This document shows positions 3,100 to 27,561 of a stretch of DNA of 32,000 nucleotides, piece after piece; the first letter of the stretch is position 1; the number at the start of each line of letters is the position of its first letter. The stretch is from Candidatus Kuenenia stuttgartensis (lineage in GTDB: Bacteria > Planctomycetota > Brocadiia > Brocadiales > Brocadiaceae). The stretch lies in the NCBI RefSeq assembly GCF_900232105.1, contig NZ_LT934425.1, forward strand, positions 360,001 to 392,000, in the 5' to 3' direction. Below the pieces are notes generated by a model. That model was given only the letters and a program-made list of their open reading frames with translations, did no database searches and was not told the DNA's origin. The position numbers and the translations under genes are program-made.

Positions 3100-3603
3100 T
3101 TAAATATCCGGAGGGAGAATGATGTTGCCGTTTTTCAACGTGTTTGATTTGAATCTCTTAAGTTGTGGGAGAAATGGACTATACTCCCATTCGAGGTGGT
3201 ATTTATTATAGAGCGTCTTGATTAACCGATGGTATTTTTCATGTATTGATTGGGTTTCATCTTTATGTCTTTCGTCACAATAAAATGCCCTGCAGGAAAG
3301 CATCCGAAAGTTCCTGATACTGCATAAATCATTTTTGAGAAATGGACAAACATCTCTTGAAATATCAAAATCGTGAACAGACACATTTTTAGTTACATAA
3401 TCAACTTCAACACTGCTTGCATACAGCACATGGTCATATTCCCCGAAATTGCCGCACATTCCACATTTATTACATCTGGGATTAATCAAAGACACTTCAT
3501 GCTCTAAGAGACAATAAAGTTCCTTTAACTCCGAAAACAGTTGATCATTATGAGCTGTTTCCTTTTCTGCAATAATACTATTATCCGGCAAATCGATTTT
3601 CAT
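3100..3603 (-). CDS. Divergent YkgJ/UPF0153-like Cys-cluster protein
   Basis: 167-aa ORF with CNKCGMCGNFG, CPFLKNDLCSIRNF and LSCRAFYC. Its start overlaps the upstream paralogue by 23 nt. Confidence 0.55.
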   Translation of the reverse strand: MKIDLPDNSIIAEKETAHNDQLFSELKELYCLLEHEVSLINPRCNKCGMCGNFGEYDHVLYASSVEVDYVTKNVSVHDFDISRDVCPFLKNDLCSIRNFRMLSCRAFYCDERHKDETQSIHEKYHRLIKTLYNKYHLEWEYSPFLPQLKRFKSNTLKNGNIILPPDI

Positions 3604-4039
3604 ACATTATCAAATTCTTTCGTATTGTTTTCAAATTATGCAACCGCCCTTTATCTATGCCTGCACACTGCCCCTTTAACTTTTCCCACTCGTTCTTTTC
3701 TTTGATGTTCGAAGACCAAAAAGGAAACGTTCTGCATTGGCATGGTCTAACTTCATATATAACGCAACCGTTGTTATACATAACGCAATCGCCATTGCCA
3801 TATTCCACCAAACTAATTCGCCCATAAACATTTCTTAAATATTTTTTTGCAAACATTTCCTGAGTAATTCCCAGAAATCGGGAAATGTCTTTAATCTCTT
3901 TGTCATTCACCCAAACAACCCCTGGCTCCCCACGGCAACACTTGCCACACTGCTGGCATTCAAACTGTAGTCCTTTTTTGTACCAGGGCTTACAATCTGC
4001 TCCATCCTCTTTATCTTTTGTTTGTTCGCTGCAATCCAT
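3581..4039 (-). CDS. YkgJ-family (CxxCxxCC) putative Fe-S/Zn cluster protein
   Basis: 152-aa ORF with the canonical CQQCGKCCRGEPG motif, then GDCVMY...GCVIYEVRPCQCRTFPFW. Confidence 0.8.
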   Translation of the reverse strand: MDCSEQTKDKEDGADCKPWYKKGLQFECQQCGKCCRGEPGVVWVNDKEIKDISRFLGITQEMFAKKYLRNVYGRISLVEYGNGDCVMYNNGCVIYEVRPCQCRTFPFWSSNIKEKNEWEKLKGQCAGIDKGRLHNLKTIRKNLIMYENRFAG

Positions 4040-4327
4040 ATCTCAAATAAATAATTTCTCTTCTATACTTCCCACTTTTTGCGTTTATTCCACACAGTAA
4101 AATTTCTCATATATTGAAAATCTATCGGGAAATAACAATACAATTTTAACTTTGAAATGTAAAGGAAGAAATAATGGTAAAACTCCACATTCTGAAGCAA
4201 TGAATATGTACAATAAACAATTAATAATTCAATAGCTATTAACAAAAAACCATACTAGAATATATTTTTAATCTTTCTGGATGAACGGTAGTTGAAACAA
4301 TCTGTTTATGGGTTGACATTTTAAGCA

Positions 4328-5755
4328 GTGAATGTCCTTCTTGTTATCACCAATCGTTATCGCGGTCCAATACCTGTCATGCCCCTCGGAGCATGTATGG
4401 TTGCTGATGCCACTGTACGGGCTGGTTATCATGTTCAGGTATTAGACTTAATGTTTGTTCGTAACCCATTACGCGCCCTCTGTTCATCCCTCGATAAAAT
4501 ACAACCTGATGTCATAGGACTCTCTGTACGAAATATCGACAACAATGATATGTTACATCCGGTAGCGTTCTATAAAGATTTGAAACTACTTGTCGATGCA
4601 ATTCGCACAAAAACGAAAGCTATGCTTATCCTGGGAGGTGCCGGTGCAGGGGTTATGCCAGAACAACTCCTCAATTATACCGGCGCAGATTGGGTAATCA
4701 CAGGAAACGGAGAGGTTGTCTTTCCCGAAGTGTTGGATGTTCTTTCTAAAAATGAAAAGCCGATTCATGTGCCCGGTATTGCGTGGAATGACAAAACAGG
4801 TTTTAAAATAAATGCTCATAGTGGAAGCAATTTTTTATTGAACAACGTAATCCCTGATTTTCGTCGATGGATTAATGTGCCCGCGTATTTATCACGGTTT
4901 TCCACTATTCCCATTCAAACGAAACTCGGGTGCCACTTTCAATGTGTCTATTGCACGTATAGAAAACTTGAGGGCATTTCTTACCGGTTATGTGATTCTG
5001 AACAGGTAGCAAATGCGATTATTGAATTGACAAAAAGCGGTATGAAAGATATTGAGTTTGTAGACAATGTATTTAATTCCCCTTACGGACACGCACTGGA
5101 TATCTGTGATTCGATTGCAAAGACTGGAATAAATGCCAGATTCCAAACGGTGGAGTTGAATCCTCTTTTTATTGACGATAAACTTCTTCATGTAATGGAA
5201 CGTGCAGGTTTTGTTGGTATAGGCATTACCGTTGAAAGCGCTGCCGACCCCGTCCTTGAACGTTTAAAGAAAGGTTTTACCGCGCGTGAGATCTATAGGT
5301 CATCTGAAATAATCCGGAAACATACTATGCCTTGTTTATGGATATTTATGTTCGGCGGGCCAGGTGAAACGGAAGACACTGTTATGGAAACACTTGATTT
5401 CGCGAAAAGACAAATTCGCCCTGAAGATGTAGCGCTTTTTATGATAGGAATACGCATATATCCAGGTACTGAGCTTGAAAATATAGCACGGTCAGAGGAC
5501 GTATTAACCGTTTCTCCCCATAACATGCTTGAACCGGTATTTTACTTTTCTCCAACCATTCAGTTGGAATGGTTATTGAAAACAATCCGTTCTGCCATGT
5601 CGGTACACATGAATTTTATGACTCCCAAAGCTATCGGTTTGCCGTTCCTTCCTGCTCTGAATCGTATAGGATATTGGCTGGGAATCAAACCTCCTCTCTG
5701 GAAAAATACACGATTCATTCGCAGAGGGCTTAGATATTTGGGTAGAGATATATAA
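4328..5755 (+). CDS. B12-binding-domain radical SAM enzyme (class B type)
   Basis: 475-aa ORF with a GTG start; an in-frame TAA lies immediately upstream. The N-terminal Rossmann-like VLLVITN...PLGACMVADATVRAGYHVQVLDL...DVIGLSVR is followed by the radical SAM cluster motif CHFQCVYCTY (CxxxCxxC). Confidence 0.9.
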   Translation: MNVLLVITNRYRGPIPVMPLGACMVADATVRAGYHVQVLDLMFVRNPLRALCSSLDKIQPDVIGLSVRNIDNNDMLHPVAFYKDLKLLVDAIRTKTKAMLILGGAGAGVMPEQLLNYTGADWVITGNGEVVFPEVLDVLSKNEKPIHVPGIAWNDKTGFKINAHSGSNFLLNNVIPDFRRWINVPAYLSRFSTIPIQTKLGCHFQCVYCTYRKLEGISYRLCDSEQVANAIIELTKSGMKDIEFVDNVFNSPYGHALDICDSIAKTGINARFQTVELNPLFIDDKLLHVMERAGFVGIGITVESAADPVLERLKKGFTAREIYRSSEIIRKHTMPCLWIFMFGGPGETEDTVMETLDFAKRQIRPEDVALFMIGIRIYPGTELENIARSEDVLTVSPHNMLEPVFYFSPTIQLEWLLKTIRSAMSVHMNFMTPKAIGLPFLPALNRIGYWLGIKPPLWKNTRFIRRGLRYLGRDI

Positions 5756-5765
5756 TGTAATAATC

Positions 5766-6827
5766 TTGCTTATGTTTAATGAAAATGTATCTATAGCCTC
5801 ATTATCTACAGTAACACCGCCGTATGTGATAAAACAGGCAGAAGCGGAAGCTTTTCTCGCAAAACATTATGCCAGTAAATTAGGGCCAAAAAGTCTTGCA
5901 AGAATGAAAAAGATTTTCGCTCATCCGGGTGTATTATGCAGACATATTGCAACAGATAACATTGAATGCCTTGTCAATGAACCTCCGGATAGTCGTATTA
6001 CCCGTTTCACAAATTGGGCAATAGAGCTTTCGTCGCAAGCAATTAATGACTCCCTCGCACAGGCTGGTTTAACGAAAGATACCATAACAGGATTGGTAGT
6101 AAACACCTGTACCGGATACATTTGCCCGGGAATTTCTACATACCTTATAGAAAAGCTTGGTTTATCTAAACGAATAAGGATTCACGACCTTGTAGGAAGC
6201 GGTTGTGGCGGTTCTATCCCCAATCTACAGATTTGTAAAGATATGATACAGTCGAATGGAGATGGAGTGGTCGTAAGTGTTTCGGTAGAAATTTGCAGCG
6301 CAACATTTCAAATGGCAGACGATTTGAGTTTAATCGTCTCAAATGCGATCTTTGCTGACGGGGCAGCGGCAACCGTTCTATGGAAACGTCCTGGAATATT
6401 TACCTTGGTTGCTTCTGCCAGCAGGTGTGACACTCATCATCGCGAAGATATACGATACATATACAAAAATGGGCAATTGCATAACCAGCTTTCTCAGAAA
6501 TTACCTGCGATTGCCAGTAAAACTGTTTCTCAGGTTGTAATGGACTTGCTAACACCCTGGAAACTAAAACCTGAGGATATTGAACACTGGGCCTTCCATC
6601 CGGGAGGGGAAAAAGTAATCAATGCTATCAGGAACGAGCTGGGACTTTCCGAATCACAACTACAACCAACCCGTGACGTTTTGGCGAGGTATGGAAACAT
6701 GTCTTCCCCGACAGTATTGTTTGTGTTGCAAGAAATTATAAGGAAAAGCATTGCTCCCGGCGATTGGTGTGTAATGGTAGCGTTCGGCGCCGGGCTGAGC
6801 GCTCATGGATTTCTTCTTAGACATTAA
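5766..6827 (+). CDS. Type III polyketide synthase (chalcone/stilbene synthase superfamily)
   Basis: 353-aa ORF with the Cys-His-Asn triad contexts VVNTCTGYICPG, WAFHPGGEKVINAI and YGNMSSPTVLFVL. TTG at 5766 or ATG at 5772, only 10-16 nt after the radical SAM stop codon. Confidence 0.9.
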   Translation: MLMFNENVSIASLSTVTPPYVIKQAEAEAFLAKHYASKLGPKSLARMKKIFAHPGVLCRHIATDNIECLVNEPPDSRITRFTNWAIELSSQAINDSLAQAGLTKDTITGLVVNTCTGYICPGISTYLIEKLGLSKRIRIHDLVGSGCGGSIPNLQICKDMIQSNGDGVVVSVSVEICSATFQMADDLSLIVSNAIFADGAAATVLWKRPGIFTLVASASRCDTHHREDIRYIYKNGQLHNQLSQKLPAIASKTVSQVVMDLLTPWKLKPEDIEHWAFHPGGEKVINAIRNELGLSESQLQPTRDVLARYGNMSSPTVLFVLQEIIRKSIAPGDWCVMVAFGAGLSAHGFLLRH

Positions 6828-6871
6828 AAATCGTCGCAACAGTGGGGTCAAACCTCCATATTTCAATTATC

Positions 6872-7008
6872 GTAACACTTTAGTCTTTTGAAAAATTCCA
6901 ATAATAGCAATGTTTGGCGCATAGTGTAGGGACGACGGATGATGAACATCCTTCGTCTTTCGTGCTTCGTCCCTGCTCTTACGTTTTTCAAAAAAACTAA
7001 AGTGTTAT
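6872..7008. repeat. MITE-like palindromic element, TIR family A, core type 1
   Basis: The left end gtaacactttagtcttttgaaaaattccaataat pairs with the right end tttttcaaaaaaactaaagtgttat. There is an internal hairpin gtagggacgacgg...cttcgtccctgc. It lies 45 nt after the PKS stop. Confidence 0.8.
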
Positions 7009-7032
7009 CCAACTTCTCATTATCCCGCGATA

Positions 7033-7530
7033 TGGGAGCATTCCCGATTTTTTGTAAAAATGCCATTAGCGGGGAGAGGGAAAGGAATAGTAACACAAGC
7101 TTCCTGTTTGAGGGTAAAATGCCACAAGCAGGATGTTTGTGTTACAATGTACAATTAGTTAACCAAAAATCGGGAATGCGCCTGTTGTTCAAACTATGTC
7201 CCCCGCTGGCGGGGGTGCAGGGGGTGGACTGGATTTCTCCATCGATTCAACTACCCCTTTATTATGAAAACAAATTTGACCCTCTTTCCCACACTCCGCA
7301 GACTGGTCAAATGGACAATTTTATACTGTTTCGTGACATGCATTCCCGCAGAACGTAGGAATGAGAAGAAAAATTTATGGCTATTCATGTTATAAACCTC
7401 CCTGATTTCCTCCGCAGACAATTCCACCCCCTTAATCCCCCGCCAGCGGGGGACAAGGCTTGCCACATCCCTTGCAGCGTTGTTTTGCCCCAATCACACA
7501 AACGGTTACAAAAAATCGGAAATGCTCCTC
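7033..7530. repeat. Nested inverted-repeat cluster (families C and D)
   Basis: gcattcccgattttttg (7038-7054) pairs with its complements caaaaatcgggaatgc (7164-7179) and acaaaaaatcggaaatgc (7508-7525). The G/C-rich arm gtcccccgctggcgggggtgcagggggtgga (7198-7228) pairs with tccacccccttaatcccccgccagcgggggac (7424-7453). Confidence 0.7.
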
Positions 7531-7650
7531 GCGATATCCTTCGGCTTCCCTTGCAATATGCGGTATTACAGTCATCAACCTGAATAATGAGACCTCCCAA
7601 GTTCATTTATGTACCTTTCCCGGCCATACCGCCACTCTCAACTCCGACGA

Positions 7651-7689
7651 CTTGATGTAGAGACGCATTGTATGCGCCTCTACATCAAG
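7651..7689. repeat. Long near-perfect hairpin (18-bp stem, 3-nt loop)
   Basis: cttgatgtagagacgcat-tgt-atgcgcctctacatcaag, with one mismatch in the stem and no flanking U-run. Confidence 0.7.
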
Positions 7690-7966
7690 AGTAACAACAG
7701 AATAAAGTCACTGACAAAGGCGGCCTAATTTATTGAAATGCAATTTTCAAACAGCTAAAATGCTGGAAACGAGTTAAGCTGAAAAGAACTCCCCTTGCTG
7801 ATTCCCTATTTATGCTAGTTTGCACAAATATATCATACTTATATTTTTTCAGAATGCCCAAAAAATTGCTTGATTCAGAAAGTTATTTACTGTATTCTAA
7901 CCCCTACTTTAGCTTGTCCTTATGGTTATCTTATATACGCCATATTTTTAGAAAGGAGAAAGTTGT

Positions 7967-11551: not shown

Positions 11552-11784
11552 CAGACAATATTTTTTCTGTCAATAAAAATAAACCATCCTGAGGATTTAA
11601 GTCACACAGTCTTCCTCATTTTTAGGTTCGGGAAATGCGTTCTTAATTGGCAAGCATAGCATTAGCTATTCCCTGAATGACTGCTTAAAATATCCTTTCT
11701 TTTTCTGTTTCCCTCTAATTGAATAATAAGGAACAACACCCCGATAACCTGCCAAAGAAATAAGGATTCAGGGGTTTTCCAGAA
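11552..11784. repeat. 233-bp direct repeat, copy 2 (3' UTR plus last 41 codons of the intact ligase gene)
   Basis: Identical to 10366-10598. It covers 11552-11661 (downstream of the stop) and 11662-11784 (coding). Confidence 0.9.
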
Positions 11785-12975
11785 AATATCAGTTAATCCG
11801 TGGGAAATCAGCGAAACAAGACCGGCTGAAACACCTACAAGCAGCATTTTTTCGAATCTATTTTCTGCAATTGATTTTATCGCTTTTATTGTTCTATAAA
11901 ATATTATGGTAAACATCCATAGGAAGATCGCTAATCCAAATATCCCCGTTTCCACCCACATATGCAGTATAATATTATGCGCATGCGAAAGACTTTCAAC
12001 CTTTTGCACTTTTTTCTTCTTAATAGTCTTCGCAGGAATATCCCCAAGAGATTTCTTTTCTTTTTCTCTAATCTCCTTTCTGTATGTTTCATATATATCC
12101 CTGAAGTTTCTTTTTCCTGGCCCGATCCCCAGCAACGGATGATCAAGAATAATCGCAATCGACGCCTTCCAGCACATCAACCTTTCTCCAAGAATCTTGT
12201 TCGACGAAAAGAATTTATCATATTGTGTGATGGTTTTGGCGTGCATGGAATATTTCGATGGCAAAAGCACAAACAATAAAGGACACATAGCAATTATCGC
12301 AATGAGCAAGTACTTTTTTTTCAACATGAACGCTATATAAATCACAGCAACCATATTTGCGAACCAGCTTGCCCTGCTCATCGTCAGAACTATTGCATAT
12401 CCGCTTACAAAAACAAGACATCCAAGCCAAAACCTAACAAATATGCTTCTGTAATAAAAAAACAGACAAATAGCAATCGGCAGGAACAATGAAATATATT
12501 TTGCAATCCTTGAGTGATACTTAAATGTAGCAATTAACCTGTCATCTCTTGCGGCAATTCCCGTATAATACCCATACAAACCATATGCACATACCAGCCC
12601 ACAGGTAATAAGCATTGCCTTTATTATGCGTTTCACTTGTTCAATACTGTGTATTGTATTGACCATACAAAAAAAGATGATGAAGTACGGGACATAGTCG
12701 TGCAGGAGTGTTTCGAAACAATACTTTGTATTTTTTGAAAAAATTGATGCTATTATCAGATAAATAAAAAATACCAGTATGGGTATGTTAAGCGCTGTTT
12801 TCTCAAAGATAATCCGTTTCTCAAGCACCATCTGATACGCCAGGCATCCAACCATGGTCACCAAACACATCATCTTAATGACATCAGCGCCGAAAGGAAA
12901 AAATGTTAAAATAAAAAAATACGTAATAAATGCATACTCTGATACCTGACTTATTTTACTATTTTTCGTATTCAT
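11662..12975 (-). CDS. O-antigen ligase / Wzy_C-family polytopic membrane protein
   Basis: About 10-12 hydrophobic segments. The large loop region has HAHNIILHMWVETGIFGL, typical of the O-antigen ligase family. The ORF is open to a TTG at 13044, but residues 1-23 (LEFFKKLKCNELL...) are encoded by the MITE. The ATG at 12975 (MNTKNSKISQ) is the likely start. Confidence 0.85.
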   Translation of the reverse strand: MNTKNSKISQVSEYAFITYFFILTFFPFGADVIKMMCLVTMVGCLAYQMVLEKRIIFEKTALNIPILVFFIYLIIASIFSKNTKYCFETLLHDYVPYFIIFFCMVNTIHSIEQVKRIIKAMLITCGLVCAYGLYGYYTGIAARDDRLIATFKYHSRIAKYISLFLPIAICLFFYYRSIFVRFWLGCLVFVSGYAIVLTMSRASWFANMVAVIYIAFMLKKKYLLIAIIAMCPLLFVLLPSKYSMHAKTITQYDKFFSSNKILGERLMCWKASIAIILDHPLLGIGPGKRNFRDIYETYRKEIREKEKKSLGDIPAKTIKKKKVQKVESLSHAHNIILHMWVETGIFGLAIFLWMFTIIFYRTIKAIKSIAENRFEKMLLVGVSAGLVSLISHGLTDIFWKTPESLFLWQVIGVLFLIIQLEGNRKRKDILSSHSGNS

Positions 12976-13011
12976 CAATAGTAGTTTTGCCCGCCTATTC
13001 CTTAATAATTC

Positions 13012-13148
13012 GTTACACTTTAGTTTTTTGAAAAATTCCAACAATCAAAAAGTAGGGGCGAAGCATTTGCTGTAAATGGTCATAAATACGTTAATACCCA
13101 AACGGGCAAATGCTTCGCCCCCTGCTTTTTCAAAAAACCAAAGTGTTA
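13012..13148. repeat. MITE-like palindromic element, TIR family A, core type 2
   Basis: gttacactttagttttttgaaaaattccaacaatc...gtaggggcgaagcatttgc-[loop]-gcaaatgcttcgcccc...tttttcaaaaaaccaaagtgtta. It sits inside the operon, between the GT2 stop (13158) and the ligase start. Confidence 0.85.
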
Positions 13149-13157
13149 AAATAATTC

Positions 13158-14114
13158 TTATTTACCTGGTTTTGCCGACCGTAATCCCATCCAATCAGGA
13201 CATAACAATACATGCCATTGAAAAAGCCTGCAATATATTGTCAACCGGTATCTCAACTTCCTGCTAAGAAACATAACAATGCCGTTCCCCGCGCTATTGA
13301 TGATTAAATTGAATAAAATCTTCATAACATACAATATTCTGAAGGTAACGTAAACATCACGGGAATAATTCTTTTTAAAAAAAAGATACAATGACCGGCA
13401 ATACTCAATTTGCGATTGCCACGGCGCTTTTCTCTTGCTCTCTCCCCCCAGATGAATCACCCTGGCGTCGGGGACATGCCACACTCTCCACCCTGCATTT
13501 TTCATGCGATAGCACCAGTCAGTCTCTTCAAGAAAGAAAAAATATCTCTCATCCAATGTACCGACTTTTTTTATTGCCTCATTCCTTACCATAATACATG
13601 CCCCTATAACTGATTCTATTTCGACGGGCTGCGTGATGACGCGTTTCTTACTCAGGTATTTATCAGGAAACAACCATCGCAAGAAACTTTTATTCAATAA
13701 CTCAGATGCCAGGGTTGGATAATTATCAAAACTGTTTTGTTTCATACCGTTTAGTTTTAATAGTTGAACACCGGCAATTCCCGCATCATTATGGGATTCC
13801 ATAAAAGCATGCAATATCCGCAACGTATTTTTTTCTAAAATCGCATCTGTATTAAGCAATACATAATATTTTGGGGAAATAGCCGTTATTGCCTGATTCA
13901 CCGCAGCGGCAAACCCCTTGTTTTCCCTGTTCTCTATAATATGCACTCCGGAATACCTGTTACGCACCGCCACAACACTGTCATCTTTCGATCCGTTATC
14001 CACGACACAAATTTTAATACTACAATCTGTATCAGATTCATAAACGGATGCAATGCATTTCAACAACAGGTCTTTTGTGTTCCAGTTGACAATAATAATA
14101 CACAGGTCATTCAT
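13158..14114 (-). CDS. Family 2 glycosyltransferase (rhamnosyl/galactosyl-transferase-like)
   Basis: 318-aa ORF with CIIIVNWNTKDLLLKCIASV, VVDNGSKDDS and LLNTDAIL. ATGA overlap with the upstream GT2 (14111-14114). Confidence 0.85.
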   Translation of the reverse strand: MNDLCIIIVNWNTKDLLLKCIASVYESDTDCSIKICVVDNGSKDDSVVAVRNRYSGVHIIENRENKGFAAAVNQAITAISPKYYVLLNTDAILEKNTLRILHAFMESHNDAGIAGVQLLKLNGMKQNSFDNYPTLASELLNKSFLRWLFPDKYLSKKRVITQPVEIESVIGACIMVRNEAIKKVGTLDERYFFFLEETDWCYRMKNAGWRVWHVPDARVIHLGGESKRKAPWQSQIEYCRSLYLFFKKNYSRDVYVTFRILYVMKILFNLIINSAGNGIVMFLSRKLRYRLTIYCRLFQWHVLLCPDWMGLRSAKPGK

Positions 14115-15004
14115 GAATGAAACAAGTAGTATCTCAAGGTTCTGATATTAATCGGATCCATTTTCAACGAAAGGCGAAAATTTTCCCTTGCCACAACTTT
14201 ATCGCCCATTCGCGTATAATGTCTGCCGATTTTAGCATAATGTGCGGCTAAACGTTTTTTATACATTTTTTCGTTAATGCCGTTCTCACTGTCTTTAAAC
14301 ATAGTATATATCTTATCAATGATCACTTTCTGATATTTCAGGACATTATTGCGGTTTTTACTTAGAGATTTGGCACTATGCCTGTATTTCACCAGCGGAA
14401 CGTCTATGCCAATCGCTTTGTAATAGAATGCGATTCTCAGCCACATGTCCCAATCCTGGCAATTTACCAGTCCAGAATCAAATAAAGCCGTTTTATTAAA
14501 CACCTCTTTACGAACCACAACGGAAGAACATATTATAAAATTTTGTTCAAAGAATAATTGAGTGAAGATATTGCCAGATGGCAATCTTCTCCTGATCTTT
14601 CCTTCCAGAAACTGGCTTTTTGAGTCTATATTTATATGTTTTGAATATACCATTCCAGCATCAGGATTTTTCATGAATTGGTCAATTGACATCTCCAGTT
14701 TCTCCGGCATCCAAATATCATCGGCATCAAGGAATGCGACATACTCTCCCTTCGCCGACTGAATGCCCAGATTTCTTGCCGTTGGAAGCCCTTCATTGCG
14801 CCCTAAATCAATATACTTTATCTTTTCCATATAAGGCTTCAATACCAGCTTCGTGTTGTCAGTAGAACCATCATCAATCACAACAACTTCATACGCATCG
14901 TATGTCTGTGCAAGAACTGATTCAATTGATTCCTGTAAATAAACCGCACAGTTATAGGTAGGCATAATAACAGAAACCAGAGGTTTTTTATTTGCCATAA
15001 GCAC
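14111..15004 (-). CDS. Family 2 glycosyltransferase
   Basis: 297-aa ORF with VSVIMPTYNCAVYLQESIESVLAQTY, VVVIDDGSTDNT and the FLDADD (DxD) motif. Confidence 0.9.
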   Translation of the reverse strand: MLMANKKPLVSVIMPTYNCAVYLQESIESVLAQTYDAYEVVVIDDGSTDNTKLVLKPYMEKIKYIDLGRNEGLPTARNLGIQSAKGEYVAFLDADDIWMPEKLEMSIDQFMKNPDAGMVYSKHINIDSKSQFLEGKIRRRLPSGNIFTQLFFEQNFIICSSVVVRKEVFNKTALFDSGLVNCQDWDMWLRIAFYYKAIGIDVPLVKYRHSAKSLSKNRNNVLKYQKVIIDKIYTMFKDSENGINEKMYKKRLAAHYAKIGRHYTRMGDKVVARENFRLSLKMDPINIRTLRYYLFHS

Positions 15005-15051
15005 AGATTACACTTTTTTTGTAATGCATAGAAAACTATCCTTCTTACTAT

Positions 15052-16146
15052 TTATGGCCTGGTGCTCTTTATACATTCTTCATATAATGCGTATATTTCG
15101 CCGCCAACATTCTCCAGATCATATTTACGCCCCTGAGCGGCAGAGCGTTTTGAAAATTCAAAAAGCATATCTTTTTGAGAAAATAAGGCAAGTAATCTTT
15201 CTGCAATTTCCTTTGGATCATCTCCCGCCACAAACCCATCAATACCGTCATGGACGATTTCCTCAACAAAATCTCTCTTTAGACAGATAGCAGGTTTCCC
15301 CAACACCTGACATTGCCTTAAAGCCCTCGCTGTTCCATCAGAACCGGCAACCGTATAAAACATTACGTCAAAGCAATGTACGGCGTCCCAGTAATCCAGT
15401 CTCTTGTACCCGCCGAAAATCACACTATCCTCTAATTTATTTTTCTTAACCGGCATTACCGCCAGTTTATTCAGATTAGGGCCCCTTCCCAGCAGTAAAA
15501 ACTTAATATTTTTACCGGATTCCTTTATTATTTTAACGACTTCAACAACCAGTTCAAATTTTCTGTGATGCTGCACTCTCATGACAAGGCCAACCACAAA
15601 ATCATCATCATTTAAACCAAATTCCGGCCTGATATTTTTTGGTTTTTTTGGTATTTGATGAATATCCAGCCACGGTTTTAAACAAACTACCTTCCTGAAA
15701 TCGTTCTGCAGCATATCTCTTAATTTAAGGCTAAATACCGTGAAAACATCCGCCTTTTTGCAAATTGTTTTTTTCAAAAAACCGGGCGGAGTAACATTGA
15801 AATCGGTAAATATTTTTACCGCCTTATGCGAACTCCCCAGGTGCACAGCAAGGTCTCTATCACGAAAGAAATGAATGATGTCAGGATCAAATTGTTGAAC
15901 AACCTGCTTTGCCACACGTCTGTTTCTCATCATTGCGCCAATCCCACCGCGCTTAGCAAGGGTTTGTACCGTTTTTACCCTGCCGGATTCCACATGAAAA
16001 ATCAAGCCTGTATCCGGAATTTTAGGCACACTCGTCAACAACATAACGTCGGCCTTTTTGCTCATATAATTACACAACTCAACAATAGGCTGCGAAGGCC
16101 CCGTCCACTTGTGATCAGAATACAGGTAGAGAATTTTCATAATCAA
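15052..16146 (-). CDS. GT-B fold glycosyltransferase (GT4 / Glycos_transf_1-like)
   Basis: 364-aa ORF. The N-terminus MKILYLYSDHKWTGPSQP and the C-terminal FVEEIVHDGIDGFVAGDDPKEIAERLL are typical of GT4 enzymes. Confidence 0.8.
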   Translation of the reverse strand: MIMKILYLYSDHKWTGPSQPIVELCNYMSKKADVMLLTSVPKIPDTGLIFHVESGRVKTVQTLAKRGGIGAMMRNRRVAKQVVQQFDPDIIHFFRDRDLAVHLGSSHKAVKIFTDFNVTPPGFLKKTICKKADVFTVFSLKLRDMLQNDFRKVVCLKPWLDIHQIPKKPKNIRPEFGLNDDDFVVGLVMRVQHHRKFELVVEVVKIIKESGKNIKFLLLGRGPNLNKLAVMPVKKNKLEDSVIFGGYKRLDYWDAVHCFDVMFYTVAGSDGTARALRQCQVLGKPAICLKRDFVEEIVHDGIDGFVAGDDPKEIAERLLALFSQKDMLFEFSKRSAAQGRKYDLENVGGEIYALYEECIKSTRP

Positions 16147-16207
16147 TGCTTTTGTGTATTTTAAATACCGTTATTTCGCAGTGGAAACTTTTCCACCCTC
16201 TATTACG

Positions 16208-17242
16208 TTAAACACCCCTGATAACATTTATAAATTTCGGCGCATTCGCCTGTAATGAATATCCGGCATCTAATGTCTTTCTCCCTGCCAGCCCCATACG
16301 CCTTCTCAGCGCCGCATCATCGGCCAGGCATTTTATCTTCTCTGCCCACTCATCAACACTTGAAGCAAACATGCCGCTCACGCCTTCCTCAACAATCTCA
16401 CTGTGAACTCCCACCGGTGAACATACTACGGGAACGCCCACTGCGAAATATTGAAGCAGCTTTGTAGCGCACTTGCCCCTTGTCCATTCATGATTCGGCA
16501 AAGGCGCCAAGCCTATATCAATGCCTTGTAAATCAGCATTTTCGTCTTCAATTGCCCATATCTTTTTGTGTACAGGCATTGTTTTGCAATCAATAAATTC
16601 GTTGCAAATAATCTTCAGTTCCAGCGATTTATTCTGTTCTGCCAACTTATCAAAAGCAGGCGTCAATTCCTGTATGAACGGAAGCGATGACTTGCTTCCG
16701 ATCCATCCTATGGTTATCTTTTCCTTCCTGGTATCATAATTCCTGACCGAATACTTGCCCGTATCTATTGCAGTAGGGATAATAGTTACGTTATTATTGT
16801 AAGGCAATGCCTTTGATTTCAGATACGAATTGCCTGCAATTACAGAATCGGCAAACCGCACCATTCTGGCAAATGTCCGCTGTCTTTTAAACGATCTTCG
16901 GCGTCCATCTACCGGGCTTTTGTACATCACCGCATCGTCAAAATCATATATTATTTTGATGCACTTTCTCTTCAGATACCAAAGTTGCCAATACCACAGC
17001 CTCTTTTTCTGGACATACAATACATCATAACCATTCATTTGAGAAAACAATTTCATCCATTGCCAGAACGAACCGGGGAAAAGTGATACTGTATATGCTA
17101 TATGTGCTTCATTTAAGTAGGGAAGATACTGCAACACCCTGTATCTGCTTGCAGGGTGTTCCCATTCCTGTATTAAAAAATAGACTCTTTTTGTTTCCAT
17201 AACTATGATAGCTACTTTAAGACCTTTGCCTGCGGCGGCCAT
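16208..17242 (-). CDS. GT-B fold glycosyltransferase (GT4-like)
   Basis: 344-aa ORF with C-terminal CSPVGVHSEIVEEGVSGMFASSVDEWAEKI. An alternative start METKRVYF at 17200 would remove the 31-nt overlap with the kinase gene. Confidence 0.8.
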   Translation of the reverse strand: MAAAGKGLKVAIIVMETKRVYFLIQEWEHPASRYRVLQYLPYLNEAHIAYTVSLFPGSFWQWMKLFSQMNGYDVLYVQKKRLWYWQLWYLKRKCIKIIYDFDDAVMYKSPVDGRRRSFKRQRTFARMVRFADSVIAGNSYLKSKALPYNNNVTIIPTAIDTGKYSVRNYDTRKEKITIGWIGSKSSLPFIQELTPAFDKLAEQNKSLELKIICNEFIDCKTMPVHKKIWAIEDENADLQGIDIGLAPLPNHEWTRGKCATKLLQYFAVGVPVVCSPVGVHSEIVEEGVSGMFASSVDEWAEKIKCLADDAALRRRMGLAGRKTLDAGYSLQANAPKFINVIRGV

Positions 17243-18822
17243 AAGTGTTTTCTTGCTATGCTGGCCTTAATAATTCCCCGTATAATTTCTTTATCAGCAT
17301 TATTAATCTTCTTTCCCTTCATATACGCCCTGTAAAACCGTAATCTGTCCGTGTATGTCAAACAATCTGGCATCGATGCATTTATTTGAGACAAATTTCT
17401 AATGCGTTCATCACGCGTAATTCTTCCGTTAAAGTAAACCCTGTCGAGGTCAAGGTAATAAAAATTCCAGGCATCAGGCAATTCATTCACCAGGATATTA
17501 TTTGCCTTCAGATCAGCGTGATATACCCCCAAATCGTGCAATTTCCTAAAAGACTCCGCCAGACTTGAAACAAACCTTCTTTTTTTTCTAAAAACCGGTT
17601 TGCCATGCGCCCTATTTAATTTTTCCGTTACATATTGATTACACGGCAAATTCCCGGATGCATTCTCCGTCACAAGAAAGCTTTTCTCCAGAATGCCATA
17701 CTTCCTGCTTTCGCAAAGCGCAATCGGTTGAGGAGTCAGAAGTTTTAGCGCTAAAAGCCCATGAGAGGCAAGCCATGCCTTTCGCGCAGGGGAATGAATG
17801 AGGGAATAAACGCCTCTTTTTAACAAAGCTGGATAACGGTATTCTTTTACGCACACACCTTTGATTTTTTCATCAGGGCAGAAAACAAGGGTAATCCCTG
17901 TTTTATGAGAATTTTTAATAACATTCTCCTGCCTATCGCGCAATGAATCATTATGCTTTTCAATGAGGGCAAGCAGTGTATCTGCGTCCCACTCCGCTCT
18001 CATGTTTATTCTGTAACCGCCCTTTTTTATTATGGTAAATATATTATTTTTCTTTAAACATTTTCCCGCCCTGCTGCGCCATATACGGTATTTCGTAGCA
18101 CCTACGCTCTCTAATATTTCTTTAGGATCAAAAGTTCCGTAACAACGCGCCAATTCAATTATCTCGTCATTTGTGCATACATCTTTAATGGAATACAATA
18201 ATCGGGACAATTCCTTCTTTCTGGCAGGCAATGTCGTTTTTTTCCCGCACCTGGCACGGCCAATATCTATTAAATAAAACAGCGCAAAATCATTGACGTC
18301 AACCAATATATTCTCAGCGTGAAGTTCTCCGTGTAAAATCCCGGCGTCATGCATATTTTTTACAAAGAGTATAAGGTTTCGCAACACCTCCTTTTTTTGT
18401 ATTACGCCCGCCGGAGTCTTTATTAACTCAAGCAAAAGGGCTTTTACTGCAATGCTGTTTGGAATTGTTTTTGAAATTATGTAACAATCCCGGAGTATTC
18501 CGCAACTACGTGTTTCTCCCATAGCTACTGGTTCTGCGGTATGAAAACCGTTTTTCAGCAATAAAAAACCCTGATTCCACTCCCTTTTAGCCTTTGACTG
18601 AGCAAACAACGATTTAAACCTGTCGATACTGCCCTTTGCCTTATAGTGTTTTATATAATACGATTCATGACTATTAGTATATTTCAAAACCCTCCTGAAA
18701 TGTCCATTACGTACCATTTCATATTGATCATCCCGATGAATAGTATTAAATATTTCGCTTAACGCATCGGTTAATCCACCGTTCACCAGCCATTCAATAC
18801 CATTATTAACATAATTATTCAT
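17212..18822 (-). CDS. Tandem-domain lipopolysaccharide kinase (Kdo/WaaP family) protein
   Basis: 536-aa ORF with two kinase-like halves. Half 1 has YYIKHYK...SKAKREWNQGFLL...HGELHAENILV...LIDIGRAR. Half 2 has VCVKEYR...SPARKAWLASHGL...YHADLKANNILV...YLDLDRV. Confidence 0.8.
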   Translation of the reverse strand: MNNYVNNGIEWLVNGGLTDALSEIFNTIHRDDQYEMVRNGHFRRVLKYTNSHESYYIKHYKAKGSIDRFKSLFAQSKAKREWNQGFLLLKNGFHTAEPVAMGETRSCGILRDCYIISKTIPNSIAVKALLLELIKTPAGVIQKKEVLRNLILFVKNMHDAGILHGELHAENILVDVNDFALFYLIDIGRARCGKKTTLPARKKELSRLLYSIKDVCTNDEIIELARCYGTFDPKEILESVGATKYRIWRSRAGKCLKKNNIFTIIKKGGYRINMRAEWDADTLLALIEKHNDSLRDRQENVIKNSHKTGITLVFCPDEKIKGVCVKEYRYPALLKRGVYSLIHSPARKAWLASHGLLALKLLTPQPIALCESRKYGILEKSFLVTENASGNLPCNQYVTEKLNRAHGKPVFRKKRRFVSSLAESFRKLHDLGVYHADLKANNILVNELPDAWNFYYLDLDRVYFNGRITRDERIRNLSQINASMPDCLTYTDRLRFYRAYMKGKKINNADKEIIRGIIKASIARKHLWPPQAKVLK

Positions 18823-19104: not shown

Positions 19105-20661
19105 TCATGCCGCCATTTCCGTAAGTGCTTTAATATCAAGGGCTGAAGCGGTCATCAGTGAACAAGAGAACTTCTGGCCTTTCTCCGTCAAAACATAGCG
19201 GTTGGCCCTCGGAACTTTGCGGATTAGACCGTGTGCCCGCAGCATCTTTATCCGTCGGGTCGTTCGTCCGGAATATTTCTTTTGCTGATCCTTGCCGGAT
19301 TGTTCGGATTCCCGGTAAAGCCACTTACGCAAATCATGGTTGCGGAATCCATTTATCGCGTTTTCGCCTTTGGACAGGAACATCAGCATCTGGTAATCAT
19401 CCTGCTGCCAGGGATTCAAACCTCGATACCTCTTGCCCTCTTTGACAACCTTGTTACAAGCGCTGCTCACCACTTCTTTCAGTTTCTCCTCTACCTGAGC
19501 CGCCGCCAAAGCATCCCCATAACGATCATTGCATTGTTGGCTCACCTCACACCGTCGATGAAGATCGCTTACGCCCTTACGCATCTTCTGCCATGACGCC
19601 GGTTTGCCTTCATCATCATTGGGACTCCGAAAGACCTTAAAGTCCCGCGTATTATTGATCGTTGTCTCAATACGCAAGAGACTACCGCTCTTGTTATACA
19701 TCTTCACTGAATTATAATTCACACTGTGCTTGACCCGTATACCTTCATAGCGTCTTCGATAGTCGCTGATAACCTCATCAGGGGCAGCGCCTGCAAGGTT
19801 ACGCCTACCCAAATACTTCATCACCGAAGAACTGTCGCAAACCCGCATCGCATGATGAACAAACGATGGAAACAACTCCTCCAATGCCTCAACCGATTTA
19901 AACATGATGTCCGTCGCCCACTCCGTCTCATCCGCAGACCAGTAATACTCCGGTTCCAACGGACGAAGAATCTGCGACAATGCCGGGCAACTGCCCAACG
20001 CAAGCCCGTTCAGCAGCTTCGCCCAGTCAGTCTTAAGCTGCTCATGGAGCAGAACCTGCGCAGCCGCAATATCCTCTATACGCACAAAACAGTTGCCGTC
20101 CTTAACATAATCAATACCTTGCTTCTGAAGTTGCCGCTCCAGCCAATGACGACCATTGAGACAAATGAAAATATTAAACGGCGCCCAACTCTGGATACGA
20201 ACATGACCAAAACCAAACACTGGATCGTTAAAATAATGATACACAAAGACACACTTGCGGGGCGCCATTACCAACTCGAGCTTCTTGCTGGCCTTGTTGC
20301 CCTTGACCATCGGCGCAATACAAGGCTCTACCACACTCAACAGGCAGATGGAACCTTCCGTAATCCTCTTATCCGCCGCGATCTGGCGAGCCAACTTCTC
20401 CTTATCAACACCGTTGCTCATCAAATACCACACCTCGATACCCAAATCTTTCGCCCGCGATTCACAACTGTCTCGCACCTGTGCCGTAAGCCCATTGACC
20501 CAACCGGAAAAATCCTTAAGCAGAATTCTCGCTTGGTTCATGAATGTTCCCATCCCACGCTCACTGGCCAACCACCGCAATGTCCCGCGAAAACGAATCC
20601 TGTCCAGACCGCTTATTGCACCCACGATCCTGTCTCGATATAATTCCATCAACTTATTCAT
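19105..20661 (-). CDS. Hypothetical 518-aa protein on a G+C-rich island; C-terminal winged-helix-like motif; candidate selfish or mobile gene
   Basis: Long ORF with a good SD (ggaggacactactt-ATG). No catalytic motif that I can name. The conserved-looking core is VFVYHYFNDPVFGFGHVRIQSWAPFNIFICLNGRHWLERQL. The C-terminus is RRIKMLRAHGLIRKVPRANRYVLTEKGQKF. Spot G+C counts are 47-62% inside versus 28-40% in flanking lines. Confidence 0.7.
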   Translation of the reverse strand: MNKLMELYRDRIVGAISGLDRIRFRGTLRWLASERGMGTFMNQARILLKDFSGWVNGLTAQVRDSCESRAKDLGIEVWYLMSNGVDKEKLARQIAADKRITEGSICLLSVVEPCIAPMVKGNKASKKLELVMAPRKCVFVYHYFNDPVFGFGHVRIQSWAPFNIFICLNGRHWLERQLQKQGIDYVKDGNCFVRIEDIAAAQVLLHEQLKTDWAKLLNGLALGSCPALSQILRPLEPEYYWSADETEWATDIMFKSVEALEELFPSFVHHAMRVCDSSSVMKYLGRRNLAGAAPDEVISDYRRRYEGIRVKHSVNYNSVKMYNKSGSLLRIETTINNTRDFKVFRSPNDDEGKPASWQKMRKGVSDLHRRCEVSQQCNDRYGDALAAAQVEEKLKEVVSSACNKVVKEGKRYRGLNPWQQDDYQMLMFLSKGENAINGFRNHDLRKWLYRESEQSGKDQQKKYSGRTTRRIKMLRAHGLIRKVPRANRYVLTEKGQKFSCSLMTASALDIKALTEMAA

Positions 20662-26262: not shown

Positions 26263-26754
26263 TAAAATATTACGTACTATTTCCCTACAACATGATATGA
26301 TAGCGATGAAAATGTTAATTTAAAAAATCCTTGTATTTCAGATAGTTTGATTTTAGCATGTTTTTTGTAACATTTTGTAACATTTTAGATATTAGCCTTG
26401 TATTATCCTTCACTATTTTTAAAGCGTTTAAACAATGATACCTTGTAATAAATGCAGCCAGCATATTGGCGAACGTCTCTGTATTGGACTGGGAGACTGG
26501 CTTTGCCCGAAGTGTTGTGGACAATATCGCATTGTTGACATAAATTGCTGGAAGTATTGTCCCTTCTTTTTTAAAGAAGAAATCCCCGTCAATGCTGAAA
26601 AACAGAAACAATAACTGATTACCCGGGAAAAACCGCAGAAAACATTTACGGACGAAAACGATAATCGCTGCTTTAACAAAAGCATGTAATGAGAGGAGCG
26701 TTTTCCCCCTGGTATGCGGAGAAACCATTTTCAAAATTACCCGGCAAACGCCAC

Positions 26755-27561
26755 ATGGCAAATCAACGGTCACGGATAATAACACTTCTTACGGACTTCG
26801 GAATTCATGATGCTTATACCGGCATTATGAAGGGAGTGATTGCCGGGATTAATCCGCATGCCAACATCATCGATCTGTGCCATATGATTCCGCCACAAGA
26901 CGTTTTTCGCGGGGCATATATACTGTACACCTCTTACCAGTATTTTCCAAAAGGAACTATACACATTGCCGTTATTGACCCCGGCGTTGGCAGTGAAAGA
27001 AACATACTCTGTGCAGAATGCAAAGGACACCTGTTCCTTGCCCCGGATAATGGTTTATTGAGTTTTATCCTTCAAAAAGAAAAGACTAAAACCATCACAC
27101 GTGTGACAAATACCAAATTTTTCCTGCCGGGGCAAAGCAATACCTTTCATGGACGGGACATCTTCGCACCGGTAGCGGCACATCTGTCACTTGGCATCTT
27201 ACCCGATCAGTTAGGCAGGAAAATCAATCAGTTCCGTCAGATTGACATGCCAAATCCCGTATTTGCAAAAGAAAACAGAAGGATTAACGGAACCATTCTC
27301 TCTATTGACCATTTTGGCAACCTCATTACCAACATCACAGAAAAAGACATAGATAATTTAGAAACAACCACAAACAATCTAATTTTAACGGTAGACAATG
27401 AGAAAATAAAGGGCTTAAGTAATACCTATGCCGATGTAAAAACCGGCATGCCACTTATGTTTATAGGAAGTGCGGGGTTTTTAGAAATATCAGTAAATCA
27501 GGGAAATGCCAAAAAACATTTCAGGGCAAAACAAGGCCACAAGGTTTACCTCGATGCTTGA
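26755..27561 (+). CDS. SAM hydroxide adenosyltransferase family protein (DUF62; fluorinase/chlorinase superfamily)
   Basis: IITLLTDFGIHDAYTGIMKGVI, HIAVIDPGVGSER and TFHGRDIFAPVAAHL. The ORF is open from 26689, but the Met at 26755 gives the usual short N-terminus. Confidence 0.85.
   Translation: MANQRSRIITLLTDFGIHDAYTGIMKGVIAGINPHANIIDLCHMIPPQDVFRGAYILYTSYQYFPKGTIHIAVIDPGVGSERNILCAECKGHLFLAPDNGLLSFILQKEKTKTITRVTNTKFFLPGQSNTFHGRDIFAPVAAHLSLGILPDQLGRKINQFRQIDMPNPVFAKENRRINGTILSIDHFGNLITNITEKDIDNLETTTNNLILTVDNEKIKGLSNTYADVKTGMPLMFIGSAGFLEISVNQGNAKKHFRAKQGHKVYLDA

Follow-up and report, generated by a model that had tools for sequence, protein, structure and literature searches.

A near-obligate gene pair of a predicted cobalamin-dependent radical SAM enzyme and a type III polyketide synthase in anammox bacteria and other anaerobes

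The 32,000-nucleotide stretch of DNA analysed here (NZ_LT934425.1, positions 360,001 to 392,000; in the following, the window) contains two adjacent genes on the forward strand, one for a predicted cobalamin-dependent (class B) radical S-adenosylmethionine (SAM) enzyme and one for a predicted type III polyketide synthase (PKS). The linkage of the two genes is near-obligate in both search directions and in several phyla. Both proteins are strongly conserved and carry intact catalytic motifs, and the pair is kept independently of what flanks it. Judged from these comparisons, the two genes constitute one co-inherited biosynthetic module, which is shared by most anammox bacteria and numerous other anaerobes. 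With malonyl-coenzyme A (CoA) and a fatty acyl starter as substrates, the PKS may make an alkyl-phenolic polyketide, which the radical SAM enzyme would tailor without oxygen, most likely by C-methylation; we give this function about an even chance.

The two genes and their reading frames

The pair and its immediate borders comprise the following elements:

4040 to 4327, plus strand: intergenic stretch 5' of the radical SAM gene, presumed promoter region; 288 nt, free of open reading frames (ORFs), divergent from the CxxCxxCC gene
4328 to 5755, plus strand: radical SAM gene, 475 amino acids; predicted cobalamin-dependent (class B) enzyme (Pfam, NCBIfam, AlphaFold2 (AF2) model)
5756 to 5771, plus strand: spacer between the radical SAM stop codon (TAA, 5753 to 5755) and the PKS ATG; 16 nt, read from the sequence
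5772 to 6827, plus strand: predicted type III PKS gene, 351 amino acids, or 353 from the TTG at 5766 (Pfam, alignments, AF2 model)
6842 to 6859, plus strand: weak terminator-like hairpin 15 nt past the PKS stop, tentative end of the transcription unit (consensus scan)

The radical SAM frame opens with a GTG placed immediately after an in-frame TAA. For the PKS, the N-termini of aligned homologues back the ATG at 5772 over the alternative TTG at 5766. Of the 353-residue frame and the gap of 10-16 nt given in an initial annotation of this DNA, the gap therefore stands, at 16 nt, while homologues favour the 351-residue product. The spacer has no obvious Shine-Dalgarno motif and, as had been stated before, no terminator-like site was found in it by the consensus scan. 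The best promoter match 5' of the radical SAM gene lies at 4239-4266 and fits 10 of 12 positions; as the numbers of promoter-like and terminator-like matches are not above shuffled expectation, these scans are uninformative. No Rfam family or riboswitch was found in the 5' region or in the whole window. The two genes are very probably co-transcribed. Family searches found no acyl carrier protein (ACP), CoA ligase or exporter anywhere in the window, as the initial annotation had it, and no methyltransferase and no oxidoreductase or hydroxylase gene near the PKS.

Conservation of the pair

An alignment of the PKS was searched against one genome per GTDB species, which gave 367 relatives; the best 80 loci were analysed and are referred to by L numbers. 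In 75 of these, an orthologue of the radical SAM enzyme (49-83% identity) is encoded directly upstream of the PKS on the same strand. The five exceptions are a PKS gene at a contig edge (L033), a locus with another, TIGR04072-like radical SAM gene 2 kb upstream (L064), and three loci with no radical SAM gene in the flank (L019, L066 and L078). The opposite search, with an alignment of the radical SAM enzyme against JGI metagenomes, yielded 80 loci at 52-99% identity. The PKS gene follows directly downstream in 73 of them, and the remaining seven have less than 400 bp of contig left. The synteny in related genomes, proposed as a check in the initial annotation, is thus found in both directions (75/80 and 73/73 informative loci).

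When the ORFs of the flanks were clustered, only the radical SAM and PKS families recurred (79 and 72 loci), the next family being present in 16. The pairwise identities of the two proteins correlate with r = 0.81. Entirely different genes surround the pair in Brocadia sinica, in Kuenenia sp. Bin_40, in a metagenome-assembled genome (MAG) labelled 'Pseudomonadota' and in an ENA contig. P0148, a contig considered as possible K. stuttgartiensis DNA, turned out to be an ENA metagenome contig instead; the pair is present there too. On two public metagenome contigs the radical SAM enzyme is 99% identical to that of the window. The genes had been called tightly coupled, which is true of this genome with its 16-nt gap; elsewhere the gap has an approximate median of 66 nt and a maximum of a few hundred nt. 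A meaningless adjacency of two unrelated neighbours is refuted by this synteny and has a negligible probability, since the pair is conserved from both search directions in more than 150 loci and several phyla while every flanking gene changes.

Two PKS copies are present in Candidatus (Ca.) Subterrananammoxibius californiae Bin_309, on different contigs (L029 and L033) and each 71% identical to the PKS of the window. One has a radical SAM gene upstream, and the other is cut by the contig end.

Taxonomic spread and the ladderane question

The closest relative is Ca. Kuenenia hertensis YC6, with 83% identity for the radical SAM enzyme and 87% for the PKS. The gene order of its contig matches the window: FeoB, hypothetical protein, CxxCxxCC protein, radical SAM enzyme, PKS. 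These best matches bear out the anammox planctomycete host that had been surmised from the sequence. Next, with 55-77% identity, come Scalindua, Brocadia, Jettenia, Wunengus and Loosdrechtia. Approximately 38 of the best 80 species loci are from anammox bacteria, including two short contigs labelled otherwise, and ca. 42 are not, with PKS identities of 56-65%. The non-anammox carriers are Nitrospirota and Thermodesulfovibrionales (contigs of 0.6-3.5 Mb), Geobacteraceae, Desulfuromonadaceae and Desulfobulbaceae, furthermore Rokubacteria and Nitrospinota. Single MAGs carry the labels Pseudomonadota and Betaproteobacteria, and one is unclassified. Neighbour-joining trees, whether built from the PKS or from the two proteins concatenated, group the anammox sequences into a single clade that is nested among the remaining ones. 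The module is a widespread accessory trait of anaerobes, carried by the anammox lineage too.

Two pairs on contigs labelled Neomarinimicrobiota (L007, 4 kb) and Thermodesulfobacteriota (L011, 11 kb) nest inside the Scalindua clade, which suggests that these contigs are probably misbinned anammox DNA.

A role in ladderane biosynthesis, raised in the initial annotation and conceivable for instance as a separate pathway for the cyclobutane part, has to be considered in view of the anammox host and of the presence of the pair in Scalindua, Brocadia, Jettenia, Kuenenia (hertensis and Bin_40), Loosdrechtia and Subterrananammoxibius. The NCBIfam model closest to the radical SAM enzyme is named rSAM_ladder_B12, and published models leave space for a further gene set making the ladderane moiety (PMC10139942, PMC13459092). 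However, roughly half of the best 80 loci belong to phyla without known ladderanes, several of them on contigs of megabase scale, so that misbinning does not account for them. The model producer, K. stuttgartiensis, is neither among the top-120 protein matches listed for either protein nor among the best 80 genome loci, and PKS searches of its genome were reported as negative (PMC2649909; PMC4790861); it appears to be without the pair. The score against the ladderane-named model, TIGR04072, is also below its cut-off. The proposed ladderane Cluster I (kuste3603-3608) consists of amxACP, amxFabZ, two FabF homologues, a phytoene-dehydrogenase (PDH)-like gene and a radical SAM gene of the B12-dependent type (PMC10139942; bioRxiv 10.64898/2026.05.19.726425). 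It contains no type III PKS, and neither its amxACP, amxFabZ and FabF pair nor its phytoene-dehydrogenase-like gene, nor any other Cluster I gene, is found in the window. Cluster I is moreover described as unique to anammox bacteria, whereas the pair is not. As the model producer apparently lacks the module and non-producers carry it, a ladderane role is very unlikely, and we reject the link on both grounds, the breadth of carrier taxa and the apparent lack of the pair in K. stuttgartiensis.

The type III polyketide synthase

The product of 5772-6827 exceeds the gathering cut-off of 27 bits for each of three Pfam families, PF02797 (72.6 bits), PF00195 (51.7 bits) and PF08392 (58.8 bits). Its nucleophile is C145 in VGSGCGGSIPNL, aligned with the catalytic cysteine position of PKS18 and chalcone synthase (CHS). 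The triad is completed by H276 (FHPGGEKV) and N309 (YGNMSSPT), and all three residues are invariant in alignments of 14 and of 45 homologues. The contexts given for the histidine and the asparagine in the initial annotation were correct, while NTCTGYICPG, given for the cysteine, aligns with the CHS substrate loop CTTSGVDMPG instead. In agreement with the family assignment, the AF2 model (pLDDT 90) has type III PKSs as its 50 best Foldseek matches in the PDB, with TM scores of 0.86-0.91. By these features the protein is a type III PKS of the chalcone/stilbene synthase superfamily, predicted to condense malonyl-CoA iteratively and with decarboxylation onto a starter bound to CoA or ACP and then to cyclise the product.

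The lowest root mean square deviation to the model, 2.2 A, is that of PKS11 from M. tuberculosis, and the best sequence matches are Ectocarpus PKS1 and M. tuberculosis PKS18. All three enzymes use long-chain acyl substrates; the differences between matches are small. The fold was discarded as a guide to the starter or the mode of cyclisation, as all type III PKS structures match about equally. None of the NCBIfam equivalogs fits, the best being DpgA with a score of 164 against a cut-off of 425.

The radical SAM enzyme

In line with the initial annotation, which had noted a B12-binding domain and the motif CHFQCVYC in a 475-residue ORF, the product of 4328-5755 matches PF02310 (B12-binding, residues 18-135, 48 bits) and PF04055 (Radical_SAM, residues 201-359, 66 bits). 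The B12-binding domain (ca. residues 1-160) is followed by the radical SAM core and a C-terminal helical region. The motif corresponds to C202-x3-C206-x2-C209 and is conserved in at least 97% of 68 orthologues, in whose alignment 102 positions reach at least 97% conservation. By domain order and the CxxxCxxC motif, the protein belongs to the cobalamin-dependent (class B) radical SAM enzymes, and it is predicted to bind cobalamin as well as a [4Fe-4S] cluster and to use SAM.

Its placement within this class is less narrow. The top NCBIfam model is TIGR04072 (rSAM_ladder_B12; 316.3 bits, residues 3-449), the cut-off of which (360) is reached neither by the window enzyme nor by its orthologues (298-301 bits). 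The models for BzaD (TIGR04385; 157.7 bits, cut-off 450) and TsrM (117 bits, cut-off 500) follow. Those for BchE, HpnJ and HpnR score only 65-80 bits; the protein lies outside the housekeeping clades, membership of which the initial annotation had named as an outcome that would refute its proposal. Among 1.8 billion cluster representatives, 629 relatives were found at E <= 1e-30, with gradually declining identity; the ten nearest representatives of 50% clusters, all environmental proteins, reach 265-343 bits against TIGR04072 and likewise remain below 360.

The AF2 model (pLDDT 92.9) is closest in fold to TsrM (TMq 0.85), ahead of MgmA, OxsB, CysS and TokK (TMq 0.65-0.71), and TsrM is also the best PDB profile match (E 3e-47). 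With this enzyme, the tryptophan C2-methyltransferase of Kitasatospora setae (PDB 6wte), the window protein shares the order of the B12-binding domain and the radical SAM core and the VRN(T/I)D motif: the invariant VRNID (R68) is aligned with VRNTD (R69) of TsrM. R69 of KsTsrM reportedly is an arginine on the lower face of the corrin. On the other hand, the window protein is just 22-23% identical to TsrM and about 100 residues shorter. In addition, TsrM TDSEFN is aligned with VDNVFN of the family, so that the iron-ligating Glu273, the basis of the non-radical mechanism, is replaced by Val248, itself at least 97% conserved. Due to this exchange, the mechanism of TsrM cannot simply be transferred.

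The resemblance to the two named families next in line is also partial. TIGR04072 ('lipid biosynthesis B12-binding/radical SAM protein') is the best-scoring curated family, is aligned over nearly the full length and, like the window enzyme, adjoins condensing enzymes in lipid-type clusters, but the partner in the window is a type III PKS and not FabF with ACP. BzaD, another class B enzyme, is the second-best curated family; its score is far under the cut-off, and the window contains no bza or cob genes. The sp3 methylases TokK, CysS and MgmA are more distant than TsrM and BzaD. Thus, the enzyme looks like a relative of TsrM and BzaD that is a member of no named family and is predicted to bind SAM in the usual way.

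The exchange of the glutamate opens the question of whether the enzyme is a methylase at all. With Val248 at this position, the unique iron would be available for SAM to bind in the canonical manner and for 5'-deoxyadenosyl radical chemistry, and the enzyme may catalyse a radical rearrangement, cyclisation, C-C coupling or oxidation of the polyketide, as BchE and OxsB do, leading to a scaffold new among type III PKS products. The family is below every equivalog cut-off, belongs to the large uncharacterised group described above, and is kept even in clusters that already hold a SAM methyltransferase. However, the majority of characterised class B enzymes are methylases, the arginine below the corrin used by TsrM is conserved, and the BchE-type models score poorly (65 bits). 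We therefore regard a reaction other than methylation as doubtful.

Proposed function

In the reading that we favour, the PKS would use its Cys145-His276-Asn309 triad to add malonyl units to a starter supplied as an acyl thioester, and would then cyclise the chain. The starter would most likely be a fatty acyl-CoA or acyl-ACP out of primary lipid metabolism, and the product most likely a phenolic lipid of the alkylresorcinol or alkylpyrone type. The cobalamin-dependent radical SAM enzyme, acting after the PKS, may then supply an O2-independent tailoring step on the polyketide, most likely the methylcobalamin-mediated C-methylation of the polyketide ring or an adjacent carbon. The nearest characterised relatives, TsrM and BzaD, are aromatic C-methylases, which supports this type of reaction; BzaD is said to methylate a ring carbon of benzimidazole, an oxygen-substituted aromatic. 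The proposal of the initial annotation, C-methylation or C-C bond formation on the PKS product or on its starter, is thus a reasonable candidate mechanism, and a starter drawn from primary lipid metabolism, as it also suggested, is plausible.

Several observations weigh against this assignment. All members of the module are known from sequence alone, and the window and most anammox loci are without a methyltransferase, hydroxylase, ACP or CoA ligase; the context of quinones and phenolic lipids is borrowed from other phyla. On the side of the PKS, the similar TM scores to all type III PKSs reveal neither the starter nor the cyclisation mode, and DpgA, the best NCBIfam match despite a score far under the cut-off, uses malonyl-CoA only. 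On the side of the radical SAM enzyme, TIGR04072, the closest sequence family, is without known function, and the glutamate of the non-radical TsrM mechanism is replaced by valine. Methylation is also not the sole reaction of class B radical SAM enzymes, as BchE and OxsB show.

Fuller clusters in other lineages

Some lineages surround the pair with further genes. In four Nitrospirota loci (L045, L046, L053 and L059) it is accompanied by a UbiE-like methyltransferase, a U32-family protein, and ACP and/or FabF, in the order UbiE-like methyltransferase, U32, ACP and/or FabF, radical SAM enzyme, PKS; both ACP and FabF are present only in L059. The order in Geobacteraceae is TIGR04072-like radical SAM enzyme (349 bits in L064), hypothetical protein, methyltransferase, U32, PKS, with a second, BchE-like radical SAM gene on the opposite strand. 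An example from a cultured organism is given by Citrifermentans bemidjiense Bem (L088), whose PKS and radical SAM enzyme are 51% and 35% identical to those of the window:

CP001124.1, ca. 1,193,200 to 1,200,040: six-gene cluster with B12-dependent radical SAM enzyme, 284-residue protein without Pfam match, UbiE-like methyltransferase, U32 protein and type III PKS; BchE-like B12-dependent radical SAM enzyme on the opposite strand

The radical SAM type of this cluster is also found in Geomonas, Geoanaerobacter and Geobacter sp. M21.

The position of the radical SAM gene directly after an ACP and/or FabF gene in the four Nitrospirota loci bears on the order of the two reactions. The radical SAM enzyme might act first, on a CoA- or ACP-bound acyl starter that is methyl-branched or otherwise functionalised at an unactivated carbon, and the PKS would then extend it. 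TIGR04072 is annotated as 'lipid biosynthesis', and its relatives in anammox Cluster I adjoin ACP and FabF genes (PMC10139942). According to their structure descriptions, the solved class B enzymes CysS and TokK use pantetheine-linked substrates, and the radical SAM gene is 5' of the PKS gene in every locus. Yet gene order hardly tells the reaction order, most loci, the window included, have no ACP or FabF nearby, and TsrM and BzaD methylate aromatic carbons, not acyl chains. Modification of the starter is hence an unlikely alternative to tailoring after the PKS.

Other relatives resemble operons known from aerobes. The loci L066 and L078, which have no radical SAM gene, encode a cupredoxin, a PKS (61% identity to that of the window), a methyltransferase and a flavin adenine dinucleotide (FAD)-dependent oxidoreductase. 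This matches the order PKS, methyltransferase, oxidoreductase of pkqABC (Mycobacterium smegmatis, Streptomyces sp. MNU77) and srsABC (Streptomyces griseus), by which an alkylresorcinol is converted to an alkyl benzoquinone (PMC9927152). As in these operons, a small type III PKS core is combined with tailoring genes, and other relatives carry a UbiE-like methyltransferase. The window in contrast contains neither methyltransferase nor oxidoreductase, the known operons contain no cobalamin-dependent radical SAM gene, and the hydroxylase-type gene of the anaerobe relatives belongs to the U32 family and does not encode a flavoprotein; the likeness considered here is one of gene order.

Additional genes adjoin the pair in the anammox clade. 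In 14 loci of the Brocadiaceae type (L013, L016, L017, L022, L023, L027, L028, L032, L036, L037 and L039-L042), a WrbA-like, flavodoxin-fold flavin mononucleotide (FMN) reductase (PF03358) is encoded directly upstream of, and on the same strand as, the radical SAM enzyme, in L028 with a gap of merely ca. 6 nt. A cupredoxin-like lipoprotein lies between the flavoprotein gene and the radical SAM gene in 6 of the 14.

Among the U32 proteins are UbiU and UbiV, ubiquinone hydroxylases that work independently of O2. By analogy, the fuller clusters suggest the oxygen-free synthesis of a phenolic lipid, which may be quinone-like. Taken further, strict anaerobes, most anammox bacteria among them, might have in this module the core of an O2-independent pathway that leads from polyketides to quinone-like redox lipids of the membrane. 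The radical SAM enzyme would in this case replace the methylmalonyl-CoA incorporation or the O2-dependent flavoprotein steps of aerobes, with assistance by the U32-family hydroxylase and the UbiE-like methyltransferase in the fuller clusters. We consider this extension speculative and improbable as it stands. If true, it would mean a new electron carrier or membrane-lipid class for anaerobic respiration and a new reaction type in class B radical SAM chemistry.

A second cupredoxin family flanks the pair or the PKS in Scalindua and in loci of the Nitrospinota type. A subset of Nitrospirota (L048, L051, L058, L060, L062, L065, L070 and others) encodes a Cys-rich DUF5714 protein directly downstream of the PKS; this protein is similar to one half of MbdU, the 'metal-binding double selenoprotein', with 366 bits where the cut-off is 600. 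In L087, an anammox-type ENA contig, the pair is followed ca. 1.7 kb downstream by a COQ7-family gene (PF03232, 10791-11252) and, farther away, by a NorB/COX1-type gene. As a single case, the COQ7 neighbour may be a coincidence.

Relation to known systems

In the literature searched, the pairing of a cobalamin-dependent radical SAM enzyme with a type III PKS was not found described, in keeping with the initial annotation, which knew of no characterised type III PKS cassette of this composition. Nor did the searches bring up an account of type III PKSs from anammox bacteria, or anything relevant on those of Geobacter. As a tailoring cassette built on a type III PKS, the module belongs to a known kind, and its new element is the constant class B radical SAM partner.

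Phenolic lipids and polyketide quinones are known to be made by type III PKS operons in aerobes, where ordinary SAM methyltransferases and O2-dependent hydroxylases carry out the tailoring. A radical SAM enzyme as the constant PKS partner, in more than 150 loci of strict or facultative anaerobes from several phyla, points to an anaerobic version of such chemistry. The pair also indicates a subfamily of class B radical SAM enzymes whose substrate is defined and testable, for which the cluster of the cultured Citrifermentans (Geobacter) bemidjiense offers a tractable route to experiments. For anammox research, a tempting ladderane candidate is removed, and most anammox genera are seen to carry a PKS, contrary to the impression from the K. 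stuttgartiensis literature. The product, if made in quantity, is a possible lipid biomarker.

Surroundings of the pair in the window

Outside the pair, the window contains the following features:

3100 to 3603, minus strand: protein without significant family match (family searches)
3581 to 4039, divergent from the radical SAM gene: CxxCxxCC/YkgJ-family protein (PF03692; Pfam)
7035 to 7057 with 7506 to 7528: inverted repeats 3' of the PKS, 96% complementary; also GC-rich 7190 to 7224 with 7428 to 7462, and hairpin 7651 to 7689
11662 to 18822, minus strand: envelope polysaccharide cluster with O-antigen ligase (Wzy_C), four glycosyltransferases and Kdo/WaaP-family kinase, unrelated to the pair
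19105 to 20661, minus strand: 518-residue ORF without Pfam family, locally GC-rich (0.46-0.48 vs ca. 0.39)
26689 to 27561, plus strand: SAM hydroxide adenosyltransferase (PF01887/PF20257)
30050 to 31387, minus strand: DDE transposase (PF13701)

The first two proteins had both been taken for YkgJ-type Cys-cluster proteins and possible redox partners of the radical SAM enzyme. The family assignment holds for 3581-4039 and not for 3100-3603, whose sole likeness to it is a short C-x-I-x3-R-x3-CR-x-F-like motif; between the two ORFs there is an overlap of 23 nt. In tblastn searches, Ca. K. hertensis (L001/L052) was the only case with counterparts of these neighbours beside the pair, and none of the other examined loci had them. 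Given the changing flanks, these neighbours are not part of the unit, and a role as its redox partners is rejected.

The 1.1-kb non-coding stretch between the PKS and an HU gene is packed with nested inverted repeats (6870-7690), which look like elements of the repetitive extragenic palindromic (REP) or miniature inverted-repeat transposable element (MITE) type. At the corresponding place after the PKS, Ca. K. hertensis has a gene for a Y1 (IS200/RAYT-like) transposase.

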